Shown piece after piece: positions 18,616 to 33,706 of a stretch of 62,841 nt of DNA. Source of the DNA: Nitrospirota bacterium (GTDB lineage Bacteria; Nitrospirota; Thermodesulfovibrionia; Thermodesulfovibrionales; UBA9159); the NCBI GenBank assembly GCA_037441365.1, contig JBBISG010000004.1, positions 1 to 62,841 on the forward strand, read 5' to 3'. Within the stretch, counting starts at the first letter, position 1. The number at the start of each line of letters is the position of its first letter. Position numbers and translations under genes: made by a program. The notes beneath the pieces were generated by a model. That model worked only from the letters and a program-made list of their open reading frames with translations, did not search any database and was not told the origin of the DNA.

Positions 18616-19062
18616 ATGCGGACACATGATATAATCGAGACATTAAGATCAAAGCCTGGACATATTTTGATGCCCAATGATATAGCAGCAATATACCTTT
18701 ATGGCTCTGTTGTTAAGGGCAGACTTAGAGCAGATAGCGATATTGATATCGCCATGCTTCCCTTTTATGATGTCGATGCTTTCAGAAGGTTGGAGCTGAT
18801 CTCAAAGGTAGAGGGTATCTTTACATCGCTCCTGAGAGAAATCGGCATTGAGAGAGAAGTGAGCATTCTTGACCTGAGGGATAAATATGTATCTCTGCAA
18901 CTTCAATATAATATTATCACAAAGGGAGTGCTTGTATATGAAAAAGATACCTCTGAGAGACTTGAGTTCGAAAATGCTGTCAAGAGAGAATATTTTGACT
19001 TTGAGCCCTATCTGAGATTTTTAAGAGAGAAAAAGTATGGCGATATACCACAGAAAGCTTGA
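18616..19062 (+). CDS. mntA: MntA-type nucleotidyltransferase antitoxin (type VII TA)
   Basis: YLYGS..G....SDIDIA motif; upstream of a HEPN gene; TTGTAT-17-TATAAT promoter just upstream. Confidence 0.82.
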   Translation: MRTHDIIETLRSKPGHILMPNDIAAIYLYGSVVKGRLRADSDIDIAMLPFYDVDAFRRLELISKVEGIFTSLLREIGIEREVSILDLRDKYVSLQLQYNIITKGVLVYEKDTSERLEFENAVKREYFDFEPYLRFLREKKYGDIPQKA

Positions 19063-19465
19063 ATTAATAGATGATTGCATAAAAAAGCTATCGGAAATAA
19101 GAAAGGAAACCCCTTCCCTCGAAAGATACAGGAATGCATGGAAAGATAAAGATTCGGCAGAGAGGAACCTTCATAAAATAATAGAGGCAATTATTGATAT
19201 AGGTAAAATGCTTATCGCTGATAGAAAATTACGTGAGCCAGGGAATAACAGAGAGGTCTTTTTGATTCTTGAAGAAAAGGGTTTGTTCCCCTCTGAATTT
19301 ATATCCCTTATAGATAAAATGATAGGGATGAGAAATATCATTGTTCACTGCTATGACAGAATTGACGATGCCATTGTTTACGGGGTTCTTAAGAAAAATC
19401 TTGGTGATATCAGGAGATTGACTGATCATCTTAAGAAGGTCTGTGTAGTTAGAAAGGCAAAGTGA
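19037..19465 (+). CDS. hepT: HepT/DUF86 HEPN RNase toxin
   Basis: RNIIVHCY = RX4HXY motif; overlaps mntA. Confidence 0.85.
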   Translation: MAIYHRKLELIDDCIKKLSEIRKETPSLERYRNAWKDKDSAERNLHKIIEAIIDIGKMLIADRKLREPGNNREVFLILEEKGLFPSEFISLIDKMIGMRNIIVHCYDRIDDAIVYGVLKKNLGDIRRLTDHLKKVCVVRKAK

Positions 19466-20641: not shown

Positions 20642-20647
20642 AACCTT

Positions 20648-20678
20648 CCCCAAAAAGTCTTTGACTTTTTGGGGACCC
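20648..20678. repeat. REP-like palindromic element copy between the tRNAs
   Basis: CCCCAAAAAGTC-TTT-GACTTTTTGGGG-ACCC. Confidence 0.85.
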
Positions 20679-20684
20679 TGGTTA

Positions 20685-20757
20685 TGAGCCGCGTTGGATT
20701 CGAACCAACGACCCACGCCTTAAAAGGGCGTTGCTCTACCAGCTGAGCTAGCGGCCC
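20685..20757 (-). tRNA. tRNA-Lys(TTT)
   Basis: Reverse complement GGGCCGCTAGCTCAGCTGGTAGAGC...CTTTTAA...GTTCGAATC...GCGGCTCA. Confidence 0.95.
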
Positions 20758-21493: not shown

Positions 21494-21579
21494 ACAGAGA
21501 GGGCTATAACCTGGTATTGTAATTTGCGGACACCGGGACTGCAGTGTGGGGTACAGGGAGAGGGAGGTATGAGGAATAA

Positions 21580-21633
21580 AAATATTTCTGAAATATTTCT
21601 TCTCTTTAATTTTCTGTTAATCCCAATTACACT
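21580..21633 (+). promoter_or_regulatory. palindromic operator 1 + sigma70 promoter of the CARF-wHTH gene
   Basis: AAATATTTC-T-GAAATATTT (21580-21598), 6 bp gap, TTTAAT-17-TACACT (21605-21633), ATG at 21640. Confidence 0.65.
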
Positions 21634-21639
21634 TAAGCA

Positions 21640-22842
21640 ATGAAAAAGTTTAAAGAAATACTTATCTTTGTTGCAGGCGCAACCCCGCAGATAATCACAG
21701 AGACCATTTATGCCCTTTCACAACAGGAGCCGCCTGTCTTTCCTGACGAGGTCTATATAATCACGACATCCATCGGCAGGAAAAGAATTGAAGACACCCT
21801 GATAGAAAAGGGTATCCTCAAGGAGCTTACAGCCGAATATGACCTACCACAGATAGAACTGTCGGAGAATTCTTTCATCACTGTCAAAGACGCAGAGGGC
21901 AATGAAATTGACGACATAAGAGAAGGGTCAGACACTGAGGCAATAGGCGATCTGATAACATCCTTTATCAGAGACAAGACAAAGGACTCCACGGCACGCC
22001 TTCATTGCTCCCTCGCAGGCGGCAGAAAGACCATGAGCTTTTATATGGGTTCTGCCCTACAACTCTTTGGAAGGCCCTGGGATAAGCTCTACCATGTCCT
22101 TGTAACGCCTGAATTTGAATCAAACCCTGGGTTTTTCTATAAGCCTAAAAAGGATAGGATGTTAACTCCCCCTATCCCCCTCATTAATAAAGAGGGTCGA
22201 GGGGAAATTAGCGGGAAAAGTGGTAAGGGGGAACATGGAGGTTTAAAGCCGCTCAACACAAAAGATGCAGAAATATATCTCGCAGAGTTGCCATTCATAA
22301 GGTTAAGCCAGAAACTGTCCCTCCATGGGAAGGGTTTCAAGGAATTAGTTGCCGAGGGGCAGAGGGAAATAGATACTGCAACAATGCAGCCACTTTTGAC
22401 TGTTAAACTAAGAGAAGGGACTGTCTATATCGGAGACATCCCCATTGATATGGTGCCAATTCAACTAATGGTTTACACAGCTTATCTGAGACAGAAGTTA
22501 GACCACTGCAAATATCCTGAGAATGTCTACTGTCTTAATTGTGTAGACTGCTTTCTTCCTATAGTAGACCTTTCGAGTAGACCAGCCCTTGAAAAGATGT
22601 CAAAAGACTACAGAACAATATACAGCATCCAACCTTCCCGTGCAGACGATCTACTCGACAAATGCAAAGAAGGACTCCGTATGGAGATTATAAGATCGAA
22701 CATAAGCAAGATCAACAGGGCGATAAAAGAGCAGTTAATGGATGACACCTTACTTCCATATTACACAATCACGACTGTGAAACAATACGCCAGTAGCAGA
22801 TACGGCGTGAGGGTGGAGAAGGGGAAGGTCCGAATTATCTGA
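21640..22842 (+). CDS. NE0113-family CARF protein (often annotated 'ring nuclease Csm6') with C-terminal winged-helix domain
   Basis: GATPQIITETIYAL, IITT, CSLAGGRKTMSFY, LYHVLV are NE0113 motifs; C-terminal IRSNISKINRAIK...ITTV..Y.SSRYGV is wHTH-like; no HEPN RxxxxH. Confidence 0.85.
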   Translation: MKKFKEILIFVAGATPQIITETIYALSQQEPPVFPDEVYIITTSIGRKRIEDTLIEKGILKELTAEYDLPQIELSENSFITVKDAEGNEIDDIREGSDTEAIGDLITSFIRDKTKDSTARLHCSLAGGRKTMSFYMGSALQLFGRPWDKLYHVLVTPEFESNPGFFYKPKKDRMLTPPIPLINKEGRGEISGKSGKGEHGGLKPLNTKDAEIYLAELPFIRLSQKLSLHGKGFKELVAEGQREIDTATMQPLLTVKLREGTVYIGDIPIDMVPIQLMVYTAYLRQKLDHCKYPENVYCLNCVDCFLPIVDLSSRPALEKMSKDYRTIYSIQPSRADDLLDKCKEGLRMEIIRSNISKINRAIKEQLMDDTLLPYYTITTVKQYASSRYGVRVEKGKVRII

Positions 22843-22903
22843 ACGTGGGGCCAAAATTTAAGATTTTTGATGTATGATGTAAAATGTAAAAAAAGGGGGC
22901 TGT

Positions 22904-23152
22904 ATGGAAGGAGCTAAGCATAGAACTCAGATATCTCTTGACGGTTGGCAGTATCAGATGCTTCTCGGAATATCAAGGAAGGAAAAAAAGAGCATATCGG
23001 CGATTATCAGGGAATTGCTGTCTGAGAAGCTCCTATGCCAGGCGTCTGACAAGGAGAAAGACCCCATATCAGAGTTGATCGGCATAGGTAGGGGTGATGG
23101 TTCTCCTGTGGCGAGAGAGCATGACAAATACCTATATGGCAGGACAAGATGA
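22904..23152 (+). CDS. RHH/CopG-type antitoxin
   Basis: RTQISL beta strand + SISAIIRE helix, C-terminal EHDKYLYG typical of VapB-like partners. Confidence 0.75.
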   Translation: MEGAKHRTQISLDGWQYQMLLGISRKEKKSISAIIRELLSEKLLCQASDKEKDPISELIGIGRGDGSPVAREHDKYLYGRTR

Positions 23153-23555
23153 AGCGGATATTTGTTGACACAGGTGAGTGGTATGCCTGATTGACGAAAA
23201 AGACCCTGATCACAGGAGTGCCAGAGAATTTTACAAAAACAACTCAATCCCGCTCCTGACAACAAATTTTATATTTGACGAAACGGTAACGCTTCTCGTG
23301 AGCCGATTGGGCTGGAAAGTGGCGTGCGAATTCGGAGAAAAACTGAAAAAGAGCAGATTTGCGAGCCTTGTGCAAATCACAGATGCCGATGAGGAAAGGG
23401 CATGGAAGATCCTCCTGACGCACAGAGATGCTGGATTCGGTTACACAGACTGCACCAGTTTCGCCTTAATGGAAAGGTTGAAGATAGATACGGCTTTCAC
23501 ATACGACAACCACTTTAAAGCCATGAGGTTTAGAACCGTGCAAGATTTCGGCTGA
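23149..23555 (+). pseudogene. vapC: VapC/PIN toxin, frameshifted
   Basis: ATG 23149 gives MKRIFVDTGEWYA then TGA at 23188; the PIN body (DPDH, DETVT, DCTSF, FTYDNHF) continues in another frame. Confidence 0.8.
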
Positions 23556-23609
23556 AAACATTTCAGAAATGTTTCTTTTGTTGAAAAAACTTTCAAATTT
23601 TGGAATAAT
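23556..23609 (+). promoter_or_regulatory. palindromic operator 2 + sigma70 promoter of the NTase-cas10 operon
   Basis: AAACATTTC-A-GAAATGTTT (23556-23574), 6 bp gap, TTGAAA-17-AATAAT (23581-23609). Confidence 0.7.
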
Positions 23610-23632
23610 GCTTTTATAAAAAAGGGGCTTGT

Positions 23633-24127
23633 ATGGATATTTTTAAAAGACTATTTGATTCTCTGGATAAAGGATCTGTTAAGTACCTTGTTGGAGGCGG
23701 AATTGCCGTTAATCTTTATGGCATTGAAAGAGCTACTGCTGATATAGACATTATTCTAAAGCTTGATAAAGAAAACCTTTTAAGGTTTATAGATGTTGCT
23801 AAAGAGCTCGGGCTGAAACCAAAAATCCCTGTCAAGGTTGAAGATCTTATGGATGAAGAGAAAAGGAAAGATTGGATTGTAAACAAGGGGATGACAGTCT
23901 TCAGTCTTTATGACCCAAAGAAACCATTTTTTCTTCTTGATATTTTTGTTGATGTGCCTTTTAATTTTGACGAGGTTTACAAAAAAAGAAAAAAGATAAA
24001 ATTTATGGATACGATCATCCATGTTGTTCCCATAGATGACTTAATAAAGATGAAAGAGAAATCAGACAGAGCGCAGGATAGGGCAGACATCTTTTACCTC
24101 AGAAAAATCCTGAAGGAGTGGAGGTAG
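23633..24127 (+). CDS. nucleotidyltransferase-fold protein (DUF6036/AbiEii-like)
   Basis: GGGIAV..YG..RATADIDI motif; C-terminal K...R.QD..D. Confidence 0.78.
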   Translation: MDIFKRLFDSLDKGSVKYLVGGGIAVNLYGIERATADIDIILKLDKENLLRFIDVAKELGLKPKIPVKVEDLMDEEKRKDWIVNKGMTVFSLYDPKKPFFLLDIFVDVPFNFDEVYKKRKKIKFMDTIIHVVPIDDLIKMKEKSDRAQDRADIFYLRKILKEWR

Positions 24128-24164
24128 GGCGCCCCAAAAAGTCAGAGACTTTTTGGGGACCCCC
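24127..24164 (+). repeat. REP-like palindromic element copy
   Basis: GGGCGCCCCAAAAAGTCAGAGACTTTTTGGGGACCCCC. Confidence 0.9.
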
Positions 24165-24167
24165 GTG

Positions 24168-24353
24168 ATGAAGAATAAAACTCTTAAAGAACCGCTTTTA
24201 TATTATAAGACAAAAGAAGGTATAGAGGCCTACAGGAAAAAGCCTGTAAGATTAAAGCTCCAGTGGCTTCAGGCACAGATGGAGTTCTTTCATAAGGCTA
24301 TGCCTGCGAAGGCAAAAAGGATAAGGGAAATGCTGGAAAAGGGGGAGCTATAA
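24168..24353 (+). CDS. small basic hypothetical protein, partner of the upstream NTase
   Basis: 61 aa from ATG 24168, ending 3 bp before cas10; its end supplies the cas10 RBS. Confidence 0.6.
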   Translation: MKNKTLKEPLLYYKTKEGIEAYRKKPVRLKLQWLQAQMEFFHKAMPAKAKRIREMLEKGEL

Positions 24354-24356
24354 CAG

Positions 24357-26789
24357 ATGGGCGGTTTTAATCAAAAAGAATACCAGACTGTAGTCCTTGC
24401 AGCCCTGCTGCATGATGCGGGGAAAATGCTTCAGAGAGGCAGTTTTGGCAACCTTGACACCGGCGGCAAACATCCTAAAGTCTCGTCGGTCTTTGTCGGG
24501 GCATTTAAAAAATTCTTCTCTGAATTTGTAGACTTTGAGCTTTTTCAGACCCTTGTGCAGCGTCATCACGAAGATCAGCGTAATTTTGATGAAGATTTGC
24601 TGTGCCAAAAAGCTCCTGAACAATATAGACCTCTTTCTTTTCTTGTTAGTCGCGCTGATAATTACTCATCATCTGAAAGAGGCAAAAAGGCCAATGCTTA
24701 TCAGGACTTCAAGAGGACTCCTCTGGTATCGGTATTAAGCCGCATAGAGTTGAACAAAGAACTTCCTGAACCTCAAAAATACAGACTTGCGCCATTGTCT
24801 CCCGAGAATGCTTTTCCGCAAAAATTTAAAGAATATGAGGCGGATGAATTTAATAAGCATTTGAAGTCCTTTGGCGAAGAGTTCAATGATCTGGTTAAAA
24901 ATCTCAAAAATACCGGTTTTGACACAATGTTTTCGCATATCGTGAGCCTTTTGATGAGGTATGCGTGGTGTATTCCCGCAAACACACAGGAAGATATTCC
25001 GGATGTCTCGCTTTTTGACCATTTGAAGACAACCGCAGCTATAGCCGCATGTCTTTATCAATATCATTCCCCTGAATTCGATTTGCAAGAAATAAAAAAC
25101 GATGCAACTGAAAAGTTTATCCTTCTATCTGGAGACCTCTCTGGCATTCAAAACTATATTTTCAACATTACGCATATTGGCGCAGGCGGCGTCGCAAAGA
25201 GGCTCCGCTCCCGTTCATTTCAGCTTGCCATGATTGCCGAGATCATCAGCCACAGAATTCTACATGAATTTAATCTGCCTATATGTAATATTCTGATGGT
25301 TTCCGGCGGCAAGTTTTATATCCTTCTGCCGAACAGAGATGATGCTCAAAATAAGCTAAGTGAATTACAGTGCGAGATTGACCAATGGTTCTATAAACAG
25401 TTCAATGCAGAAATAAATCTGAATATGGCCTATATTGTAGCATCAGGCAGGGATTTTAGTGGAAGCGATGAAACCTCCAAAGGATTTGAAGGGATTTTGA
25501 ATGAATTGAATTCAAAATTGCAGGTTGTAAAAAAGATGCCTCTTAAAAGTATTCTTGCCGATGGCGCGTGGTCTGCCGATATGATGGTTTTGGATGTTAA
25601 TTATGAAGCGGAAGAGAAACTCTGCAAGGCGTGCAAAAAATTTCCCGGCGAATTCGATGATAAATCGCATACGCATCTTTGCGACAGGTGCTCTGACGAT
25701 GAGAAGATTGGAAGACTACTGCCGGGCGCCGGGCATATAAGCTTTTATAAAGACAGCAGCGGCGAGTTTAAAGGCCCCTGCGGATATTCGTTCGATTTAA
25801 AGGGAAACCCGTCTTCAAATGCGTATCTGGTTATGTCACTCTGTAAATATACGCCAGATTACCGTCATCCTTATAGCTTCAGATATGTGGCTAACCATAT
25901 ACCGTTATTCAAGGACAAGACCGATTGTGATGTCTGCCGAAAAAATGACAATTGCACAAACACGGCTGATGTCCAGAAAGGCATGCCGAAATTTTTTGAC
26001 TGCATTGCGCAGTCTGCCGAAGGCCGTGCTTTGCTTGGCTATCTCAAAGCCGATGCTGATAATCTTGGACAGATTTTTACAAGAGGGTTTAGAGGAAACA
26101 AGACAGTTTCAAGAATTGCGACATTAAGCCGTATGCTGGATGTCTTTTTCAGCGGACATATGCAAAGACTTATAGAAGGCAAATATAAAGAACTTTATAC
26201 AGTCTATTCAGGCGGTGATGATGTTCTCGTCATCGGACCATGGAACAAGATCATAGACTTTGCAGAGGAGCTTAACAGAGAATTTGAGCGATTTTGCTCG
26301 GGCAATAAAAACCTTACCATATCGGCAGGCATTGGATTGGTTAAGCATAACTATCCTGTATTCAGGGCGGTTGAGATGGCTGACAATGCCCTTGATGAGG
26401 CAAAAGATTCGGGCAGAGACAGAGTAACGATATTCGGACACGTGATAACATGGAATGAACTTCCAGATATACTGGTAGAATCAATAAAGCTAAAACAATG
26501 GCTCGCTGATAAGAATGTTTCAACAGGCTTTGCGCGCAATCTGCTTTATTACGCTCAGATGTATCAAAAATACGATAAGGAAAAAAAGAACGATTACCTG
26601 AGATTTCTGCCGCTTATGACCTATGATATAGCGAGAAACCTGCCGCTTCCCGATGATAGAGATGCTGAAAAAAGGGCGGTCAGGCAATGGGCCGAGGGAC
26701 TGAAAGATTTGACAAACCCAAAACTGCATCAGCTTGACATAATAGCAAACTATGCGTTAACAGCAAATAGAGGAGGAAAGAATGAATGA
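24357..26789 (+). CDS. cas10: type III-A Cas10/Csm1
   Basis: N-terminal HD (LLHDAGK), DVSLFDH, GDLSGIQNYIF, LRSRSF, Zn finger, KADADNLG, YSGGDD cyclase motif. Confidence 0.97.
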   Translation: MGGFNQKEYQTVVLAALLHDAGKMLQRGSFGNLDTGGKHPKVSSVFVGAFKKFFSEFVDFELFQTLVQRHHEDQRNFDEDLLCQKAPEQYRPLSFLVSRADNYSSSERGKKANAYQDFKRTPLVSVLSRIELNKELPEPQKYRLAPLSPENAFPQKFKEYEADEFNKHLKSFGEEFNDLVKNLKNTGFDTMFSHIVSLLMRYAWCIPANTQEDIPDVSLFDHLKTTAAIAACLYQYHSPEFDLQEIKNDATEKFILLSGDLSGIQNYIFNITHIGAGGVAKRLRSRSFQLAMIAEIISHRILHEFNLPICNILMVSGGKFYILLPNRDDAQNKLSELQCEIDQWFYKQFNAEINLNMAYIVASGRDFSGSDETSKGFEGILNELNSKLQVVKKMPLKSILADGAWSADMMVLDVNYEAEEKLCKACKKFPGEFDDKSHTHLCDRCSDDEKIGRLLPGAGHISFYKDSSGEFKGPCGYSFDLKGNPSSNAYLVMSLCKYTPDYRHPYSFRYVANHIPLFKDKTDCDVCRKNDNCTNTADVQKGMPKFFDCIAQSAEGRALLGYLKADADNLGQIFTRGFRGNKTVSRIATLSRMLDVFFSGHMQRLIEGKYKELYTVYSGGDDVLVIGPWNKIIDFAEELNREFERFCSGNKNLTISAGIGLVKHNYPVFRAVEMADNALDEAKDSGRDRVTIFGHVITWNELPDILVESIKLKQWLADKNVSTGFARNLLYYAQMYQKYDKEKKNDYLRFLPLMTYDIARNLPLPDDRDAEKRAVRQWAEGLKDLTNPKLHQLDIIANYALTANRGGKNE

Positions 26790-27342
26790 CTGGAAAGATA
26801 AACTTAGCGAATTGCATAAAGGGGGTGGAGGCATGAAAAGAAAATGCACGGAGTGCGGCAAGGAATTTGTGCCTAAAGAGGAGCATCATAAAACATGTTT
26901 TGACTGCGCCAAAAAGAAGAAGGGAGGCGGCATTTTGAATGAAGGACTTCCCCCTCAATATTTAGAAAAACTTGCAAAGGGTTACTTTGATAATAATAAT
27001 TGCCTCAGAGAAGAGTTTTTAACCGAGATGGCATCGGATGTCGCAAAATCATTCGGGACGAAATTGAAAAACCACCAGCTGAGACGGTTTTATGGACATA
27101 TCAAAGCTGCAGATAATCGCCTAAAGATGACCGGGGACTGGCCATGTGTAAACCTTGATGTAAAGAAATTAAGCTCGCTTGTCGCTGAGGCGAAGGGCAA
27201 AGATAAAGTTCCGGACAGTTTTTATAAATTTATAGATGCCAATATTAAGAAGATTCACAATCAGAAAGATTTTGAGGCATTTGTAGAGCATTTTCAGGCT
27301 ATCGTTGCGTATTTTACATACCATTATCCTAAAAATAACTGA
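26782..27342 (+). CDS. csm2: type III-A Csm2 with N-terminal zinc ribbon
   Basis: QLRRFY and F..FVEHFQAIVAY; N-terminal CTEC...CFDC. Confidence 0.88.
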   Translation: MNDWKDKLSELHKGGGGMKRKCTECGKEFVPKEEHHKTCFDCAKKKKGGGILNEGLPPQYLEKLAKGYFDNNNCLREEFLTEMASDVAKSFGTKLKNHQLRRFYGHIKAADNRLKMTGDWPCVNLDVKKLSSLVAEAKGKDKVPDSFYKFIDANIKKIHNQKDFEAFVEHFQAIVAYFTYHYPKNN

Positions 27343-27350
27343 AGGAGGGA

Positions 27351-28013
27351 TTGAATATGAAACTCAATGGTTACAAGGTCATAAGTGGAACATTAAAGTG
27401 TGAGACAGGCCTTCATATCGGAGGGTCAGCAGACCAGATTGAAATCGGCGGGGTTGATTTGCCGATTATAAAGCATCCTGTTACTGGAGAACCATATATC
27501 CCCGGCTCATCTTTAAAAGGCAAGATGAGGTCTCAAATGGAGAAGAAGCTTGGAAAGTTTTCTCCGGATGGAAAACCCTGTGGTTGCGGACAACAGGACT
27601 GTTTAGTATGCAGGGTTTTCGGACCCCATATGAATCCAAAACATAATCTCGGCTCTACCCGCATACTTGTGAGAGATGCTTATTTCAATAAAACAACAAA
27701 AGAAGAATATGAAAAACTGGCAAAAGAAAAAGGGCTTTCATACATTGAAAAGAAGACAGAAAACCTTGTGCTTAGAACGACCGGTACAGCTAAAGACCCC
27801 CGCTCTCAGGAGCGTGTGCCTGCAGGAGCAGAATTTGATGTAGAAATTGTCCTGCAAGTTTATGATTCTGACAACGAAAATGCTTTGATAGATTTTGTGA
27901 AGGAAGGGCTAAGGCAGGTGCAAAGCACTTATCTTGGGGGCTTTGGCAGCAGGGGGTCGGGCAAGGTCAGTTTTTATGATATGAAGATTGACGGGACTCC
28001 GTTTTCATTATAG
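27351..28013 (+). CDS. csm3: type III-A Csm3 (Cas7)
   Basis: TGLHIGG, IGGVD catalytic Asp, PYIPGSSLKGKMRS, ERVPAG, LGGFGSRGSG. Confidence 0.95.
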   Translation: MNMKLNGYKVISGTLKCETGLHIGGSADQIEIGGVDLPIIKHPVTGEPYIPGSSLKGKMRSQMEKKLGKFSPDGKPCGCGQQDCLVCRVFGPHMNPKHNLGSTRILVRDAYFNKTTKEEYEKLAKEKGLSYIEKKTENLVLRTTGTAKDPRSQERVPAGAEFDVEIVLQVYDSDNENALIDFVKEGLRQVQSTYLGGFGSRGSGKVSFYDMKIDGTPFSL

Positions 28014-28021
28014 ATGCCGTT

Positions 28022-28939
28022 ATGAAAACCTATCGTCTGAAACTGAAACCTCAAAGCAGCTTTCTTACGCCGTGGCAGGCTGATACCATATTCGGCAGCC
28101 TGTGCTGGATAATAGCATGGCGTAAAGGAGCAGATGCGCTCGCTCAATTTCTAAACGAATATAAGAGCGGCAATCCCACTTTTATTCTATCGGACGGAAT
28201 GCCCGGGGATTTGCTTCCTGCACCTGTTCATCTTCCTTTGATTGTAAAGACAGATGATTATCAAAAGGTAAAAAGCCTGAAAAAGACCGCATGGTTAAAA
28301 CCCGATGAGTTTGAATTGCTCAGGAAAGGGCAGTTTGATTTGCAACATCATGAAACCATCAAGCCATTTAAACCTTTCACAACCCTGCATAGTTCCATAA
28401 ACAGACTGACAGGCACAACAGGAGATGAGGGTTCGTTGTTTGAACTTGAGGAGTATGCTCTTGATAAGAATGACACAAAAGCCGATTATCTTTCTGTTTA
28501 TCTGAAAATCAGGACTGGACATGAAGACGCTATTATGTCTTTATTCAAAGACCTTTCTTTGTCCGGCTACGGCGCTAAAAAGTCTGCTGGAAAGGGAAAC
28601 TTTGAGATTATAGGCGGACTGGAAGAGTTTAAAGGTTTTGATGTCTTTAACGAAGCGAATGCTTTTATTGCGCTCTCCAACTTCGTGCCTGCGCCGAAGG
28701 ATCCCACAGACGGCTATTATAAGACAATAGTTAAGTACGGAAAATTAGGCGGAGAATATACTTTTAGCGGCAATCCTTTTAAAAAGCCTCTTATGATGTT
28801 GACTACAGGTTCGGCATTTCGGACAAAAGAGAGCCCTAAACCATATTACGGCCGTATGGTTGCTGATATTGCTCCGGCAATGTCCGAAGTTGTTCATTAT
28901 GGATATGCCTTTGCCGTGCCAACAACGATTAATATATGA
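28022..28939 (+). CDS. csm4: type III-A Csm4 (Cas5)
   Basis: ADTIFGSLC, ILSDGMP, GYGAKKSAGKG, HYGYAF. Confidence 0.92.
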   Translation: MKTYRLKLKPQSSFLTPWQADTIFGSLCWIIAWRKGADALAQFLNEYKSGNPTFILSDGMPGDLLPAPVHLPLIVKTDDYQKVKSLKKTAWLKPDEFELLRKGQFDLQHHETIKPFKPFTTLHSSINRLTGTTGDEGSLFELEEYALDKNDTKADYLSVYLKIRTGHEDAIMSLFKDLSLSGYGAKKSAGKGNFEIIGGLEEFKGFDVFNEANAFIALSNFVPAPKDPTDGYYKTIVKYGKLGGEYTFSGNPFKKPLMMLTTGSAFRTKESPKPYYGRMVADIAPAMSEVVHYGYAFAVPTTINI

Positions 28940-28986
28940 CTCCTCCCCTCGGCTGGGCGGTGCTTGAGGTAATGAATGGATTTTAA
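28936..28986 (+). pseudogene. csm5: probable csm5 internal-deletion remnant (16-aa mini-ORF)
   Basis: MTPPLGWAVLEVMNGF at the csm5 position; PLGW.L resembles Csm5 C-termini; ATGA overlap with the csm4 stop. Confidence 0.6.
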
Positions 28987-29524
28987 AGCTGTCTTAAAAG
29001 AGCTTTTAACTGCCTTTTATGAGCACAACATCCGTTATGCACTTATGGGTGGGTTTGCCCTTGGAGCGTGGGGAATCCCAAGAGCAACGGTGGATATAGA
29101 TTTCCTTGTGAATAGGGATGATACTGAGAAGGTTCACGGGATTATGACCGGGATGGGATATGAATGTCGCTACCGTACTGAAAATGTCTCACAGTATATA
29201 TCACCGTTTAAGATTTTCGGCGAAGTGGATTTCTTGCATGCCTTTAGAAGTGCTTCTCTGAGAATGCTCCAGAGGGCAGAAGATAAGGAAATATTCAATG
29301 GAATAAACATCAGAGTATTAAAGCCAGAAGACCTGATAGGCTTGAAGGTTCAGGCAATCGCAAATGATGAAAGAAGGAAGAATATAGAACTCTCTGACAT
29401 TGAATCACTGATGGCAGAATTCGGTAAAGGGTTGGACTGGCCTTTGATTGAAGAGTATTTTGAATTATTCGGCTTTGACGAACTGCTGAAAGAGCTTAAG
29501 GAGAGGTATGGCTCTGCTAAATGA
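28976..29524 (+). CDS. nucleotidyltransferase-fold protein (DUF6036/AbiEii-like)
   Basis: GGFAL..WG..RATVDIDFL, VDFL, EDLIGLK. Confidence 0.78.
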   Translation: MDFKAVLKELLTAFYEHNIRYALMGGFALGAWGIPRATVDIDFLVNRDDTEKVHGIMTGMGYECRYRTENVSQYISPFKIFGEVDFLHAFRSASLRMLQRAEDKEIFNGINIRVLKPEDLIGLKVQAIANDERRKNIELSDIESLMAEFGKGLDWPLIEEYFELFGFDELLKELKERYGSAK

Positions 29525-29735
29525 AAGCGAAAAAGAAGAGTTGCTGAATCTTGCAAAGTCATCTTCGCTGAAAGAGGATATGAGGCATCTATCAGAAAAC
29601 AGGCATAACCCTGTAGTTGTCAACGGGAAGATAGATATGAACCGGCTGATTACCTTTCTTACAGAGTTCAACGAGTTCATCAACCACGAGCCAAAACCTT
29701 TTAAGCCCATGATTGACAGGGAGATGAGATTATGA
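29508..29735 (+). CDS. small hypothetical protein, partner of the upstream NTase
   Basis: 75 aa, overlaps both neighbours, GGAGAGG RBS. Confidence 0.65.
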   Translation: MALLNESEKEELLNLAKSSSLKEDMRHLSENRHNPVVVNGKIDMNRLITFLTEFNEFINHEPKPFKPMIDREMRL

Positions 29736-30901
29736 GCCATATCCATGTATGTCTTGTGTCTGAGCAGCCTATACCCAATCTGACAACTGTATTGCAGTTT
29801 AAACCTGATACAGTTGTATTGCTGAAGACAAAGGAAATGGTAGAGAAGGCATCTTTTCTGGAAAAGGTTATAAAAGAAAAAGGCTTTGATGTGCATTCTG
29901 AGACAATAGAGGCTTATGATATTAACAATGTAATCAATGTAAGCGAATCCATAATCAAGAGATACAGAGACTGTAGAGTAACGCTTAACATCACAGGAGG
30001 CACAAAGATCGGCACTCTTGGGACATTTCAGGCTTTTTATACAAATGATAAAGAAATTTTTTATGTCGATACAAAGGACAACAAGATATTAAGCCTATCA
30101 AAAGGCACAGAACAAACTGAAATTCCTATTGATGTTAAGATTTCAATAAGTGATTACCTTGCGGTGTATGGCTTTGAAATCACCTCATATGTAAAAGATG
30201 ATGGTTACATATATGCAAGAAAAGACCTAACACATTATTTTGCACAAACTATATCATCTATGCCAAATTTCATCCCTAAACTCAACTTTGAGCTTCATCC
30301 GTATGACGAGAACTCACCATTACCAATCAATGCAAGCGTTCCAACCGATAAGAACTTGCACAAGCTTATCGTCAAGCTTCCAGGTGTGGCACTAAATGGC
30401 AAAAATGGCATAGTCATTTCTGATCATAACAGTCTGATGTATCTCAAGGGTTTTTGGTTTGAGGAGTATGTCTATATGATAGCAAAAAGTCTCAATCCTG
30501 ATGAGTTAAAACTAAATGTGAAAGGCAACTGGGTCACAAAGGCAAGGCATACCCCTAAAAATGAGTTTGACATAATGCTTTCAAAGGGTAACAGACTGTT
30601 TTGTATTTCCTGCAAGACCGCAAATCCCGATAGAAAAGTTGGGTCTCAGAAAAATGACAGATTTTTTGGGGGTAGTAGTGACGAAGATACCGAGGAGGGC
30701 ATTGGAAGGCAATTTCTTTATGAGTTGGTCTCATTGAGTGATAGGGCGCTTGGGCTTTTTGGTAAAAGGATGCTTGCATCAGCAAGACAAATTAAGGACC
30801 CTGCTGTTAGAGAAAGGGCACGGATACTAAATGTTGAACTAGTAGATGGTAAAAATATTCACACACTAAAGGAGAACTTAAAACAATGGCTGAACAGATA
30901 A
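29732..30901 (+). CDS. DUF1887 CARF + PD-(D/E)xK nuclease (Card1/Can2-like effector)
   Basis: HVCLVSEQPIPN, NITGGTK CARF motifs; GFWFEEYV, NEFDI, ISCKT nuclease motifs. Confidence 0.85.
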   Translation: MSHIHVCLVSEQPIPNLTTVLQFKPDTVVLLKTKEMVEKASFLEKVIKEKGFDVHSETIEAYDINNVINVSESIIKRYRDCRVTLNITGGTKIGTLGTFQAFYTNDKEIFYVDTKDNKILSLSKGTEQTEIPIDVKISISDYLAVYGFEITSYVKDDGYIYARKDLTHYFAQTISSMPNFIPKLNFELHPYDENSPLPINASVPTDKNLHKLIVKLPGVALNGKNGIVISDHNSLMYLKGFWFEEYVYMIAKSLNPDELKLNVKGNWVTKARHTPKNEFDIMLSKGNRLFCISCKTANPDRKVGSQKNDRFFGGSSDEDTEEGIGRQFLYELVSLSDRALGLFGKRMLASARQIKDPAVRERARILNVELVDGKNIHTLKENLKQWLNR

Positions 30902-31140
30902 CAATTGATATTAGCAGTTTATACTCATCTACCGAAACAGCAAAACTTGCAAACTTGGGAGAATACATCGAAAAAGCCCGAACCCTCGCAGGGTTGGGAA
31001 ATGATATAATCCTGACAGGCGCTGCCCCTGTCTGGCTTTACCTCAAGATCGCCCATGCCCTGCATGGCAAGGCGAGGAAGCTGATTTACAGGTCTCCTGT
31101 TACAGGTGATGTTGTAATTTTCGACCACAGTCCTGACTGA
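30886..31140 (+). CDS. csx3: Csx3/Crn3 ring nuclease family protein
   Basis: LTGAAPVWLYLKIAHALH and YRSP motifs, 84 aa, next to a CARF effector. Confidence 0.8.
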   Translation: MAEQITIDISSLYSSTETAKLANLGEYIEKARTLAGLGNDIILTGAAPVWLYLKIAHALHGKARKLIYRSPVTGDVVIFDHSPD

Positions 31141-31181
31141 TCAATAGAAATGTCTCAGGATATAAGATTACTTTCCGCCAC

Positions 31182-31400
31182 CTATTTAAGGTTCTCTAAT
31201 ATCTTTGTCTTCATCCTGTTGTATTCGTCTTCTGATACGGCCCCGATACTCTTTAGTGCCTCTAACTCTTTTAGTTTGTCGATAATTAATGCGGGTTTTT
31301 CGAGTGATTTAATCGGTTTAAGCTCGATATTTACGAACTCCGGCACAAGGCGGTACTGTCCACCAGATGCAGCATCTATACCCCAGCCAATGAGACCACG
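31182..31400 (-). pseudogene. 3' fragment of a SHOCT-domain protein gene
   Basis: Minus frame RGLIGWGIDAASGGQYRLVPEFVNIEL...DKLKELEALKSIGAVSEDEYNRMKTKILENLK*; the 5' part is missing. Confidence 0.65.
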
Positions 31401-31587
31401 AGAGTTTACATCAAGGGATTTTGCGGAGGACGACGAAAGACCTGGCTGTTATCTTAAGAAGGGAAGCAGAAAGAGATTTTATCCCCTCTATGAAAACTGG
31501 GCAGGGACAATGAGGCCATTGTGGGTCGAAGAGGTGAGAAACCTCACAAGGAGGATTATGGATGGGAAAGACCCTCTATCTGAATGA
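31399..31587 (+). pseudogene. 3' fragment of a cas1-like gene
   Basis: REFTSRDF...GCYLKKGSRKRFYPLYENW resembles Cas1 C-terminal helices; overlaps the next cas1 start. Confidence 0.55.
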
Positions 31588-32383
31588 AAACAGAGGACTC
31601 AGGGTATTGAGAGACGGTCCATCTGTCTGGATAAAATGGATGGGCAGGGCAGGGCAACGTGTGCCTGTGAGGCTTATAAGCAGGGTTGTCATCATAGGTA
31701 ATGTAAAGCTCGATTCGGGTACAATTACACTATTCACCGAAAACAATGTACCTGTCATCTTTATGAATTTCTCAGGAGAAGAGCTTGCTGTGGCAATCCC
31801 ATATAACCACAGACTTGCCAGGCATTACGAGGAGCAAAGGGTCTTTATCGAGACAAAGGAAAATTCTGAGCGATACACAAATTGGGCCAATACAAAAAGA
31901 ATGGTCATTCAGGTCGGCATGCTCAGGAGACTATTTAATAAGAAGATTGCCCATAAAATAAGGTTTGGTTTGGGAGAGGGAAACTATCAGGAACTTATCT
32001 CTCAGATGAAGCCGCCAGATGAGGATAAATGGATGGTTGTAACAGGCATCGTAAGCAACCTTTTCAGAGGTCTGATAATAGAACATCTCCTTAGGACTGA
32101 CCTCGACCCCCATCTCGGCGTGATACACAGGAGGCACAATTTCGGCCTTGCCCTTGATATCTGTTACATCATGGGTGGAGAAAGCGATATGCAGGGCCTC
32201 CAGTTCTTCAGATGTGGCAAAGACAAACCTTATATGGAAAGAAGGGGCAATGGCTGGGCAGTAACAGACACAGGCATGAAGAATATTATCCAGAGATTCG
32301 AAAACAGGCGGGAAGCACTTACCAGCATGATCGAGGGTATCATCGATGAACTCTTTGACCTGATGAGGGAGCTAAGGACATGA
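31562..32383 (+). CDS. cas1: divergent short Cas1
   Basis: TLYL, RVPVRLISRVVIIGNV, NVPVIF, LDPHLGVIH, LALD; upstream of cas2. Confidence 0.8.
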   Translation: MGKTLYLNENRGLRVLRDGPSVWIKWMGRAGQRVPVRLISRVVIIGNVKLDSGTITLFTENNVPVIFMNFSGEELAVAIPYNHRLARHYEEQRVFIETKENSERYTNWANTKRMVIQVGMLRRLFNKKIAHKIRFGLGEGNYQELISQMKPPDEDKWMVVTGIVSNLFRGLIIEHLLRTDLDPHLGVIHRRHNFGLALDICYIMGGESDMQGLQFFRCGKDKPYMERRGNGWAVTDTGMKNIIQRFENRREALTSMIEGIIDELFDLMRELRT

Positions 32384-32658
32384 AGTCCCCATATCTTGTA
32401 TGCTATGATATTGCTGAACCGGGGAGGCTTGCGAGAGTATTACGGTTTATGAAAGGCAGAGGTATACACCTTCAGTATTCTGTCTTTCATTGCTCATTAA
32501 CATGGCCTGAACTCGTGAAATTGAAGGAAAGATTAAATGCCCTCATTAACCACAGGGAGGATGATGTGAGAATCTATCCATTGCCATCTGATTGTAAGGT
32601 AATCGTCATGGGCTGTGGCGACAGGGTGCCCGAGGGTGTAAATATTTACTTAGAGTGA
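32380..32658 (+). CDS. cas2: Cas2
   Basis: YLVCYDI, LQYSVF, DDVRIYPL. Confidence 0.95.
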   Translation: MKSPYLVCYDIAEPGRLARVLRFMKGRGIHLQYSVFHCSLTWPELVKLKERLNALINHREDDVRIYPLPSDCKVIVMGCGDRVPEGVNIYLE

Positions 32659-32661
32659 CAG

Positions 32662-33633
32662 ATGATTATCAGGTATCAGAGGTTAACTTTTCTTATCGAG
32701 GCAATAGAGCCGCTTATAATGCCTTACTATAAGGGTTCGACCTTCAGGGGCGGCTTTGGCAATGCCTTCAAGAGGGTTGTATGTGCATTGAAAAAAAAGG
32801 AATGCAAGGAATGTCTTTTGAGGCCTAAATGTGTATATGCCTATATCTTCGAGACTTCACCACCGATGGATGCGGATGTAATGAACATGAAGAAATATGA
32901 GTCAATCCCTCATCCATTCATCATTGAACCGCCTCTTGAGACTGACAGGGTATATAAGTCAGAAGAAAAGGCATCATTTAATCTCGTTCTTCTGGGAAGG
33001 GCGATTGATTATCTGCCTTACTTTATCTTTACCTTTGATGAACTCGGCAGGTCAGGCATCGGGAAAGGCAGGGGCAGGTACAGATTACTCGAAGTGACAG
33101 CCGATAGTAAAACAGTTTATTCGTCTGATGATAAAACCATCAGAAACTCTGATTCGGATGAACTTAACATCCCGGAGGACTTTGATTCTGGATCAGGCCC
33201 GGAGCGGCTGATAACTTTGAGGTTTCTCACACCTGCAAGGATTCAGTACAGAAGAGACCTCGTGGTTGACCTCGAATTCCATATCCTGATAAGGAGCCTT
33301 CTCCGAAGACTCTGCCTGCTAAATTATTTTCATTGTGAAAAAAGAGAACTCACATGGGACCACAAACGATTAATAAATGAAGCAGAAAAGGTAACAATTG
33401 AGGACAGCTCTCTGAAGTGGTGGGACTGGAAGAGGTATTCAGCAAGGCAGGGAGTGAGGATGAAAATGGGTGGACTGGTAGGCAGCATAACATATAGAGG
33501 AAATCTGGAGCCCTTTTTACCTATCCTTAAAGCTGGTGAAGTGTTGCACGTAGGAAAAGGTACAAGCTTTGGACTGGGGAAATATGAAAAGGGCACCCCA
33601 AAAAGTCAGAGACTTTTTGGGGACCCCGGTTAG
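32662..33633 (+). CDS. cas6: Cas6 crRNA-processing RAMP
   Basis: GSTFRGGFG, Cys4 insert, PHPFII, GIGKGRG, HVGKGTSFGLG G-loop. Confidence 0.92.
   Translation: MIIRYQRLTFLIEAIEPLIMPYYKGSTFRGGFGNAFKRVVCALKKKECKECLLRPKCVYAYIFETSPPMDADVMNMKKYESIPHPFIIEPPLETDRVYKSEEKASFNLVLLGRAIDYLPYFIFTFDELGRSGIGKGRGRYRLLEVTADSKTVYSSDDKTIRNSDSDELNIPEDFDSGSGPERLITLRFLTPARIQYRRDLVVDLEFHILIRSLLRRLCLLNYFHCEKRELTWDHKRLINEAEKVTIEDSSLKWWDWKRYSARQGVRMKMGGLVGSITYRGNLEPFLPILKAGEVLHVGKGTSFGLGKYEKGTPKSQRLFGDPG
33591..33627 (+). repeat. REP-like palindromic element copy forming the cas6 3' end
   Basis: GGGCACCCCAAAAAGTCAGAGACTTTTTGGGGACCCC encodes [12 protein letters not shown]. Confidence 0.9.
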
Positions 33634-33706
33634 GATAAGAAGCAGAAATTGACTTTGAGAGACATATGGCATATTATCTAATTAAGACGTGGCTCTGCAA
33701 ATGAAA

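Follow-up and report, generated by a model that had tools for sequence, protein, structure and literature searches.

A promoter-linked palindromic box that accompanies a CARF-winged-helix gene in CRISPR-Cas loci of type III

Introduction

What reads the two inverted repeats that stand ahead of genes in the type III-A CRISPR-Cas locus of a Nitrospirota bacterium? The locus lies in a window of 62,841 nucleotides (the whole stretch of DNA analyzed; contig JBBISG010000004.1, assembly GCA_037441365.1). One repeat precedes the gene for an NE0113-type protein that joins a CARF domain to a winged helix (CARF-wHTH), and the other precedes an operon of a nucleotidyltransferase-like gene, cas10 and csm genes, an arrangement proposed in an earlier reading of this DNA (the original prediction) with which our gene calls agree. 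Judging from sequence comparison, the two sites are conserved promoter-linked regulatory elements, and the CARF-wHTH protein is very probably the reader of their boxes. On balance, we favor the reading that this protein activates its own gene and the cas10-csm operon from the boxes, with cyclic tetra-adenylate (cA4) as the switch. We infer DNA binding, the sign of the control and the dependence on cA4 from the comparisons that follow.

Results

The original prediction described two perfect 19-base pair (bp) inverted repeats (21580-21598 and 23556-23574), each followed by CT and each ending 6 bp before the -35 box of a promoter with a 17-bp spacer. The sequence bears out the coordinates, the 9-1-9 form, the trailing CT and the hexamer positions (Table 1); a promoter consensus scan recovered promoter 2 and missed promoter 1. 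What had been taken as one 19-bp operator, however, is a pair of 10-bp boxes in tandem, each palindromic in itself, and the second box takes in the C that follows the 19-mer as its final base. The distal and proximal boxes of site 1 fall at predicted positions -61 to -52 and -50 to -41, and promoter 1 is predicted to start transcription at the ATG of the regulator gene, giving a leaderless mRNA. Site 2 abuts the stop codon of a PIN gene, and its counterpart in relatives often lies directly 3' of the regulator's stop codon. In the single RNA run available, 5% of words were shared and neither promoter was covered, so that it speaks neither for nor against expression.

One such repeat alone is not rare: perfect inverted repeats whose arms reach 9 bases or more, with a 1-nucleotide spacer, number 20 in the genome. 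The shared consensus of both sites is another matter. A genome-wide scan, proposed with the original prediction, showed that it is not common: in the source assembly (91% complete; 1,807,667 bases), only these two positions match it exactly, no position matches with 1-2 mismatches, and a single one matches with 3. A matrix built from 115 sites, the window's own two included, gives the window sites 31.8 and 30.7 bits and the next best position in the genome 11.3.

The motif search beside related NE0113-wHTH genes, also proposed then, found the motif conserved with the gene. Across 401 genomes of the phylum Nitrospirota, the strict pattern (AAAYRTTKCNGMAAYRTTK) occurs in 39 of the 51 whose homolog is close (E below 1e-100), in 3 of the 26 whose homolog is distant or a fragment and in 5 of the 324 without the gene; the reversed pattern, as a control, is present in 8 of the 401. 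A looser match occurs in genomes G034, G057 and G058. Among genomes positive for the Cas10 palm, 29 of the 38 that have a close homolog also have the strict motif, versus none of the 17 without a homolog. The 20 Cas10-palm loci (309 kb) of those 17 gene-negative genomes hold no site at or above the 5th percentile of true sites (21.1); their best matrix scores, 18.3 and 13.7, each lie inside an open frame, and three single 14-bp boxes are present, one of them upstream of a gene pair before a 797-aa open frame (L138). Where the pattern AAYRTTKYNRMAAYRTT occurs in 48 homolog loci, it stands 58-60 bases 5' of the start codon, directly past the stop, or 1-2.6 kb off; no match at up to 1 mismatch was found in three of these loci (L008, L031 and L048).

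Named relatives are mainly Nitrospirota/Thermodesulfovibrionales. The tandem motif also lies beside homologs in Syntrophorhabdus and Aminicenantes records, outside Nitrospirota, and Nitrospirota carrying the distant-clade gene have AAGCTT or AACGTT boxes; the box therefore follows the gene. Together with the counts above, this supports the view that the sites track the NE0113-type CARF-wHTH gene, and not type III CRISPR generally or the host taxon. No relatives of the regulator were found in the viral contigs searched, and the 42 matches to the 19-bp pattern among viral sequences are at chance level by a rough hand estimate.

These distributions bear on the idea that some other factor reads the boxes (a host regulator, or the polymerase via an UP element) and that the CARF protein is merely a co-inherited ring nuclease. 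Gene and box could travel on the same island, the strict match in five gene-negative genomes fits another reader, and the binding of box by protein is itself deduced from sequence. We nonetheless regard this idea as very unlikely, given the lack of the motif in the 17 genomes that have cas10 and no gene, a box that accompanies the gene from phylum to phylum and whose form varies with the clade of the regulator, and GC-rich box variants at the same offset. Moreover, the recognition helix and wing of the winged helix are conserved among homologs, and RHH, the sole other DNA-binding candidate noticed between the two sites, is not conserved.

The 115 distinct tandem sites, taken from loci around the gene and from many, not all, of the genome-wide matches, align as GAAAYRTTKC-N-GMAAYRTTKC. 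Their unit is GMAANNTTKC, a palindromic box of 10 bp, which the window's clade has twice, at an 11-bp period. Differences between the arms had been called compensatory, which is correct for the two copies in the window and fails for the family. Of the 115 sites, 47 have one half as the perfect inverted copy of the other, where shuffled pairings would give 40.1 (p 0.08), and 50 have two identical halves in direct orientation, where shuffling would give 39.8 (p 0.013). The halves vary independently, and thus the arms do not co-vary like a stem. This pairing near the shuffled level is one of several results that largely refute the reading of the repeats as RNA hairpins, terminators or chance, to which we assign a negligible probability. 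Site 2 does lie after a stop codon and before a T run, but the terminator scan calls neither site, the folding energies are trivial (-1.4 and -4.4 kcal/mol for the two sites), and the sites are conserved at fixed promoter offsets. An intrinsic terminator or RNA hairpin was rejected as a candidate, as no stable stem with conserved pairing was found by scan, alignment or folding.

Nitrospira-type homologs have a single GCAACGTTKC box and further clades a single GCAAGCTTGC box. In 75 distinct metagenomic loci with distant homologs (from the best 80 of 541), GMAAGCTTKC occurs 73 times versus 2.8 expected, and CAAGCTTG lies near the regulator gene in 49 of the 75. None of 110 distant-clade boxes has a second box 11 bp upstream, and we conclude that what the whole family has in common is the proximal box, and that its doubling is a feature of the window's clade. 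In a tree of 153 regulator sequences (FastTree, midpoint-rooted, several nodes weakly supported), the tandem box occurs only within a clade with a cysteine insert (47/47), and AAGCTT occurs outside that clade (68/69); the GC ranges of the two groups overlap. Triple boxes at the 11-bp period in L038 (3624/3635), L058 (4419/4430) and L017 (1721/1732) are consistent with a repeating binding unit.

A TATAAT-like hexamer lies exactly 30 bases past the proximal AAYRTT: at this offset the -10 score exceeds 4 in 50% of the 115 sites, and at any other offset in at most 11%. A TTG emerges 17 bases upstream of the -10. The sites were oriented by the T content of the next 10 bases, a rule that mis-orients several, inflates the T counts at positions 18-27 and partly builds in the -35 'TT' signal but leaves the -10 peak unaffected. 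For the distant clade, the geometry was taken from the strand of the gene, so that no orientation had to be chosen; there the -10 peak falls again at offset 30, in 36% of 110 boxes as compared with 3% on the opposite strand, and the information at the -35 positions does not exceed 0.37 bits. An arrangement of this kind, with a box at a base-exact distance outside the core promoter and no -35, is characteristic of activator-dependent promoters. Distant-clade boxes at fixed spacing from the -10, with almost no -35, thus indicate activation.

The same geometry is relevant to a repressor that would sit on these boxes until released by cA4 and would keep the alpha subunits of RNA polymerase from the region that they use, -40 to -60. 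The window sites are AT-rich and span the region where UP elements usually lie; the -35 hexamers of the tandem clade are also fairly good. Repression has a precedent in Csa3b, which, in the part of the report available, represses type I-A genes (PMC8844856). However, the boxes never overlap the -35 or -10, their base-exact spacing is held across clades, and the distant-clade promoters fit activator dependence. We consider a repressor quite unlikely.

The candidate regulator matches PF09623 (Pfam; E 4.7e-39, 134.8 bits against a cut-off of 23) and TIGR02584 (NCBIfam; E 1.8e-58, 198 against a cut-off of 80.65). The NCBIfam name, 'CRISPR-associated ring nuclease Csm6', agrees with the usual label given in the original prediction. 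A structure model built from 127 sequences (predicted local distance difference test, pLDDT, 89.8) places a CARF domain at about residues 1-227 and an OmpR/PhoB-type winged helix at 250-394. In fold comparisons with this whole-chain model (a single-sequence C-terminal fold, pLDDT 32.5, was unused), the modeled CARF residues 3-225 match Cad1 (Z 14.7), Sso2081 (Z 14.1) and other CARFs. The modeled C-terminal fold matches VanR (Z 8.9, root-mean-square deviation 2.4, 90 aligned), CadC (Z 8.9, 2.6, 99 aligned) and GlnR (Z 8.5, 3.0, 94 aligned), with many further OmpR/PhoB members below. Foldseek on the whole model gave CARF-led matches only, and no match scoring 0.9 or higher came from an Atlas feature search. 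Cad1 is the best match for the CARF in both sequence and fold, and by this likeness the protein probably belongs to Crf5/CARF5. Identity with Csm6, a CARF-HEPN RNase, was rejected: Pfam gives no HEPN match, and residues 250-394 align to OmpR/PhoB winged helices. Four cysteines (C290, C298, C301 and C304) form an insert that is invariant in close homologs and present in about half of 136 diverse homologs; we infer that it forms a zinc site. The family comprises 1,651 representatives at 50% identity (E at most 1e-30), a count from whole-profile scores in which CARF-only relatives may be included.

Ring-nuclease motif I (G-x-S/T), motif II (G-R-K) and the acidic adenine contacts are all present. 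G13-A14-T15, E21, D92 and G128-R129-K130 correspond, by motif and spacing and not by residue-level superposition, to G9-T10-S11, E17, D75 and G104-R105-K106 of Sso2081, residues that bind and cleave cA4 according to the available portion of the Sso2081 report (PMC10018336). G13, T/S15, E21, D92, G128, R129 and K130 are kept in 132-136 of the 136 diverse homologs. The CARF domain thus appears to retain cA4-binding and ring-nuclease residues, and cleavage of cA4 is predicted. The window's Cas10 keeps both its HD and GGDD motifs. The locus also encodes a Card1/Can2-type nuclease and a Crn3-like ring nuclease, families given as cA4-specific in the accessible part of a 2025 classification (PMC12669027 Supplementary Table 2); cA4 is therefore indicated as the local signal.

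Regulation could instead be independent of cyclic oligoadenylate (cOA), with the protein bound constitutively (e.g., for control of dosage or timing after horizontal arrival) and its CARF acting separately as a ring nuclease. The intact ring-nuclease motifs and the NCBIfam call fit this, as does autoregulation from a predicted leaderless mRNA, which requires no ligand; DNA binding by Csa3Sso likewise needs no cA4, so far as the text at hand reports (PMC8844856). Set against it are the separate Crn3-like gene in the window locus, Crn3- or Csx16-like genes in 15 of 79 regulator loci of at least 10 kb (two queries only), and the rarity of more than one ring nuclease per locus, 10 of 242 in the section of Hoikkala 2025 available (PMC12409355). 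The CARF-wHTH fusion is, in addition, full-length throughout a large family. We judge cOA-independent regulation unlikely.

The original prediction assigned the sites to self-control and the interference operon, and both are indeed preceded by sites; the predicted regulon in relatives is wider, with sites ahead of the regulator gene, cas10/cmr1, cas2-cas1, CRISPR leaders and traT. The regulator gene itself follows 29 of the 115 tandem sites, and in 23 of these 29 its ATG lies 41-43 bases past the site end, which is the predicted transcription start. The 63 other downstream proteins scanned comprise 14 HD (cas10 N-terminus), 6 RAMP, 13 Cas1 or Cas2, 3 TraT, one each of Cas3-type helicase, Cas4 and Cas6, 8 of other families and 16 without a match. 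In array leaders, the boxes lie 84-85 bases from the first repeat (L053, L064, L098, L125) or 119 (L049); many arrays have no box within 400 bases. These leader boxes may serve array transcription by another geometry, or spacer acquisition. The complete genome G023 has 10 loose matches, at six array leaders, cas2, cas4, traT upstream of the regulator and a PEGA-domain gene.

Genes for TraT (surface-exclusion family), PEGA-domain and BamE-like lipoproteins stand behind a box in L021, L023:2865-3617, L118:4567-5319, L052:5521-6033 and L128:20-379, L118 being from a genome in which the regulator was not found. These putative targets hint at an envelope arm of the response. Boxes also stand upstream of cas3-type helicase and cas4-cas1 genes (L067:5319-6218 and L053:4320-4835), suggesting possible cross-control of non-type III modules.

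The locus runs in the order of Table 1, with site 2 behind the PIN gene and a second nucleotidyltransferase gene between csm4 and the Card1/Can2 gene. No box precedes cas1-like, cas2 and cas6 in the source genome. Of 177 regulator loci, the window's is the only one in which the RHH and PIN toxin-antitoxin pair, between the CARF gene and site 2, was matched; the pair is an insertion and no conserved part of the circuit. Positions 22889-22908 repeat the tail of promoter 2's 5' leader (23619-23638), as if duplicated when the pair inserted. The nucleotidyltransferase-like gene and the 61-codon open reading frame (ORF) are likely passengers ahead of cas10.

Table 1. Coordinates of the sites, predicted promoters and genes in the window.
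Feature	Position	Strand	Remarks
Site 1	21579..21599	+	Distal box AAAATATTTC 21579-21588; proximal box GAAATATTTC 21590-21599; period 11 bp
Predicted sigma-70 promoter 1	21605..21633	+	-35 TTTAAT 21605-21610; 17 bp; -10 TACACT 21628-21633
NE0113/TIGR02584 protein, 400 aa	21640..22842	+	CARF and winged helix; candidate regulator
RHH antitoxin-like gene	22904-23152	+	Pfam match below cut-off
PIN gene	23149-23555	+	Frameshifted after codon 13
Site 2	23555..23575	+	Distal box AAAACATTTC 23555-23564; proximal box GAAATGTTTC 23566-23575
Predicted sigma-70 promoter 2	23581..23609	+	-35 TTGAAA 23581-23586; 17 bp; TG and -10 AATAAT 23604-23609
Nucleotidyltransferase-like gene	23633-24127	+	Sub-threshold Pfam matches only
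61-codon ORF	24168-24353	+	Read by eye
cas10, csm2, csm3, csm4	24357..28939	+	Type III-A complex; predicted cOA source and target operon
Card1/Can2-type CARF nuclease	29732-30901	+	Profile matches
Crn3/Csx3-like ring nuclease	30886-31140	+	Profile matches
cas1-like, cas2, cas6	31562..33633	+	cas1-like Pfam match covers residues 11-101 only

Two modules of a nucleotidyltransferase and a small ORF are interspersed in the type III-A operon (24357-33633), and an MNT (Polbeta) and HepT toxin-antitoxin pair lies upstream of the locus (18616-19465). A REP-like palindrome, CCCCAAAAAGTCAGAGACTTTTTGGGG, occurs at gene ends (20642-20687, 24126-24171 and 33590-33635, and weaker at 30639-30684), with 80 pattern matches genome-wide, both strands counted. 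It is missing from a related strain's contigs at two places, and so looks mobile.

Discussion

In the activation that we favor, one palindromic box (family consensus about YNGMAANNTTKCNR) would hold both winged helices of a CARF dimer; in the window's clade, the tandem boxes would be occupied either by two dimers or by a single one reaching across the pair. The end of the proximal box lies 5 bp ahead of the -35, where bound protein could contact RNA polymerase. Upon infection, Cas10 would make cA4, filling the CARF pocket, changing the DNA-binding domains and raising transcription. Activation of the regulator's own gene and of the cas10 operon would form a positive feedback loop, which the regulator's retained ring-nuclease residues and Crn3 may switch off by ending the cA4 signal.

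Several observations weigh against activation by a cA4-switched protein. The -35 hexamers of the tandem clade are moderately good (33 of 56 match at least 4 of 6), which makes the case for activation weaker in that clade; at the leader sites, 84-119 bp away from arrays, no -10 stands at offset 30. No box lies within 3.5 kb in 30 of 153 regulator loci, and the eight plasmid-borne homolog loci have 0-2 boxes each, little over shuffles. The strict pattern is missing in 12 of the 51 close-homolog genomes, and, the genomes being related, the tallies overstate independence. The match between box and clade amounts to one or two changes on the tree, and thus is consistent with co-evolution of protein and box but short of proof. 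Promoter binding by Csa3Sso in vitro was cA4-independent in the part of that study available (PMC8844856). Finally, neither a CRISPR array nor csm5 was found in the 91%-complete assembly, and the window's copy of the system may therefore be incomplete or decaying. CRISPR arrays often drop out of assemblies.

In the original prediction, no description of such regulation was known for this family. As far as the available text of Makarova 2014 goes, direct transcription regulation by Csa3 and NE0113 was predicted there (PMC4012209). As for an operator, regulon or OmpR-type fold for the NE0113 family, our literature search, with subscription papers and preprint supplements outside its scope, found none in print. 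In the accessible parts of other sources, Csa3 is the only characterized non-nuclease CARF effector (2022 review, PMC9704534), type III loci encode no transcription factor (Xia 2022, PMC8844856), type III regulators are deferred to later work (Hoikkala 2024 survey, PMC11229360) and Crf5 is 'CARF or CARF+ADA', without a regulator role (2025 classification, PMC12669027).

The protein would work like Csa3, yet it is neither Csa3 nor Csm6. Csa3a and Csa3b share with it a CARF domain, a winged helix and palindromic sites at cas promoters and array leaders, going by the available text (PMC8844856, PMC9704534), and the cA4 ligand is shown for Csa3 and predicted for the window protein. Csa3 belongs to archaeal type I-A cassettes, however, whereas the window protein is bacterial, from a type III-A locus, with relatives beside cas10. 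Unlike Csa3, it has an OmpR/PhoB-type winged helix, kept ring-nuclease motifs and sigma-70-type promoters, and it has no match to the Csa3 profile TIGR01884 at E up to 0.05. The closest solved CARF folds, the Crn1/Sso2081 ring nuclease and Cad1, share the motif I and II residues but are a stand-alone CARF and a deaminase fusion, respectively; the window protein has 400 residues with a modeled C-terminal DNA-binding domain, and so falls outside the size of stand-alone ring nucleases, capped at 250 aa in what is available of Hoikkala 2025 (PMC12409355).

OmpR/PhoB activators (VanR, CadC, GlnR) share the C-terminal fold, the 11-bp site period (in the window's clade) and sites just upstream of the -35. 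OmpR/PhoB response regulators have a phospho-receiver where the window protein has CARF as its input domain, and, unlike OmpR/PhoB sites, the boxes of the window's family form palindromes and, in distant members, occur singly. The predicted response to cA4 at the level of transcription in a bacterium has a parallel in CalpL-CalpT-CalpS, which the portion of the table at hand describes as a several-protein protease cascade that releases a sigma factor (PMC12669027 Supplementary Table 2), whereas the window protein is a predicted one-component regulator.

Conclusions

More broadly, we tentatively propose, at a little under even chances, that the large family now called 'ring nuclease Csm6' is the missing transcription factor of type III loci: a one-component activator of sigma-70 promoters that is gated by cA4 and carries its own cA4 timer. 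From one conserved box it would switch on interference, spacer acquisition, arrays, neighboring type I genes and surface-exclusion (traT) lipoproteins. If true, the database label of the family needs revision. How CRISPR expression rises on infection in bacteria is largely open, and the protein, box, promoter geometry and predicted regulon specified here open that question to direct tests by reporter and gel shift. With its short operator, a cA4-gated activator of this kind might further be used as a genetic reporter of type III signaling.

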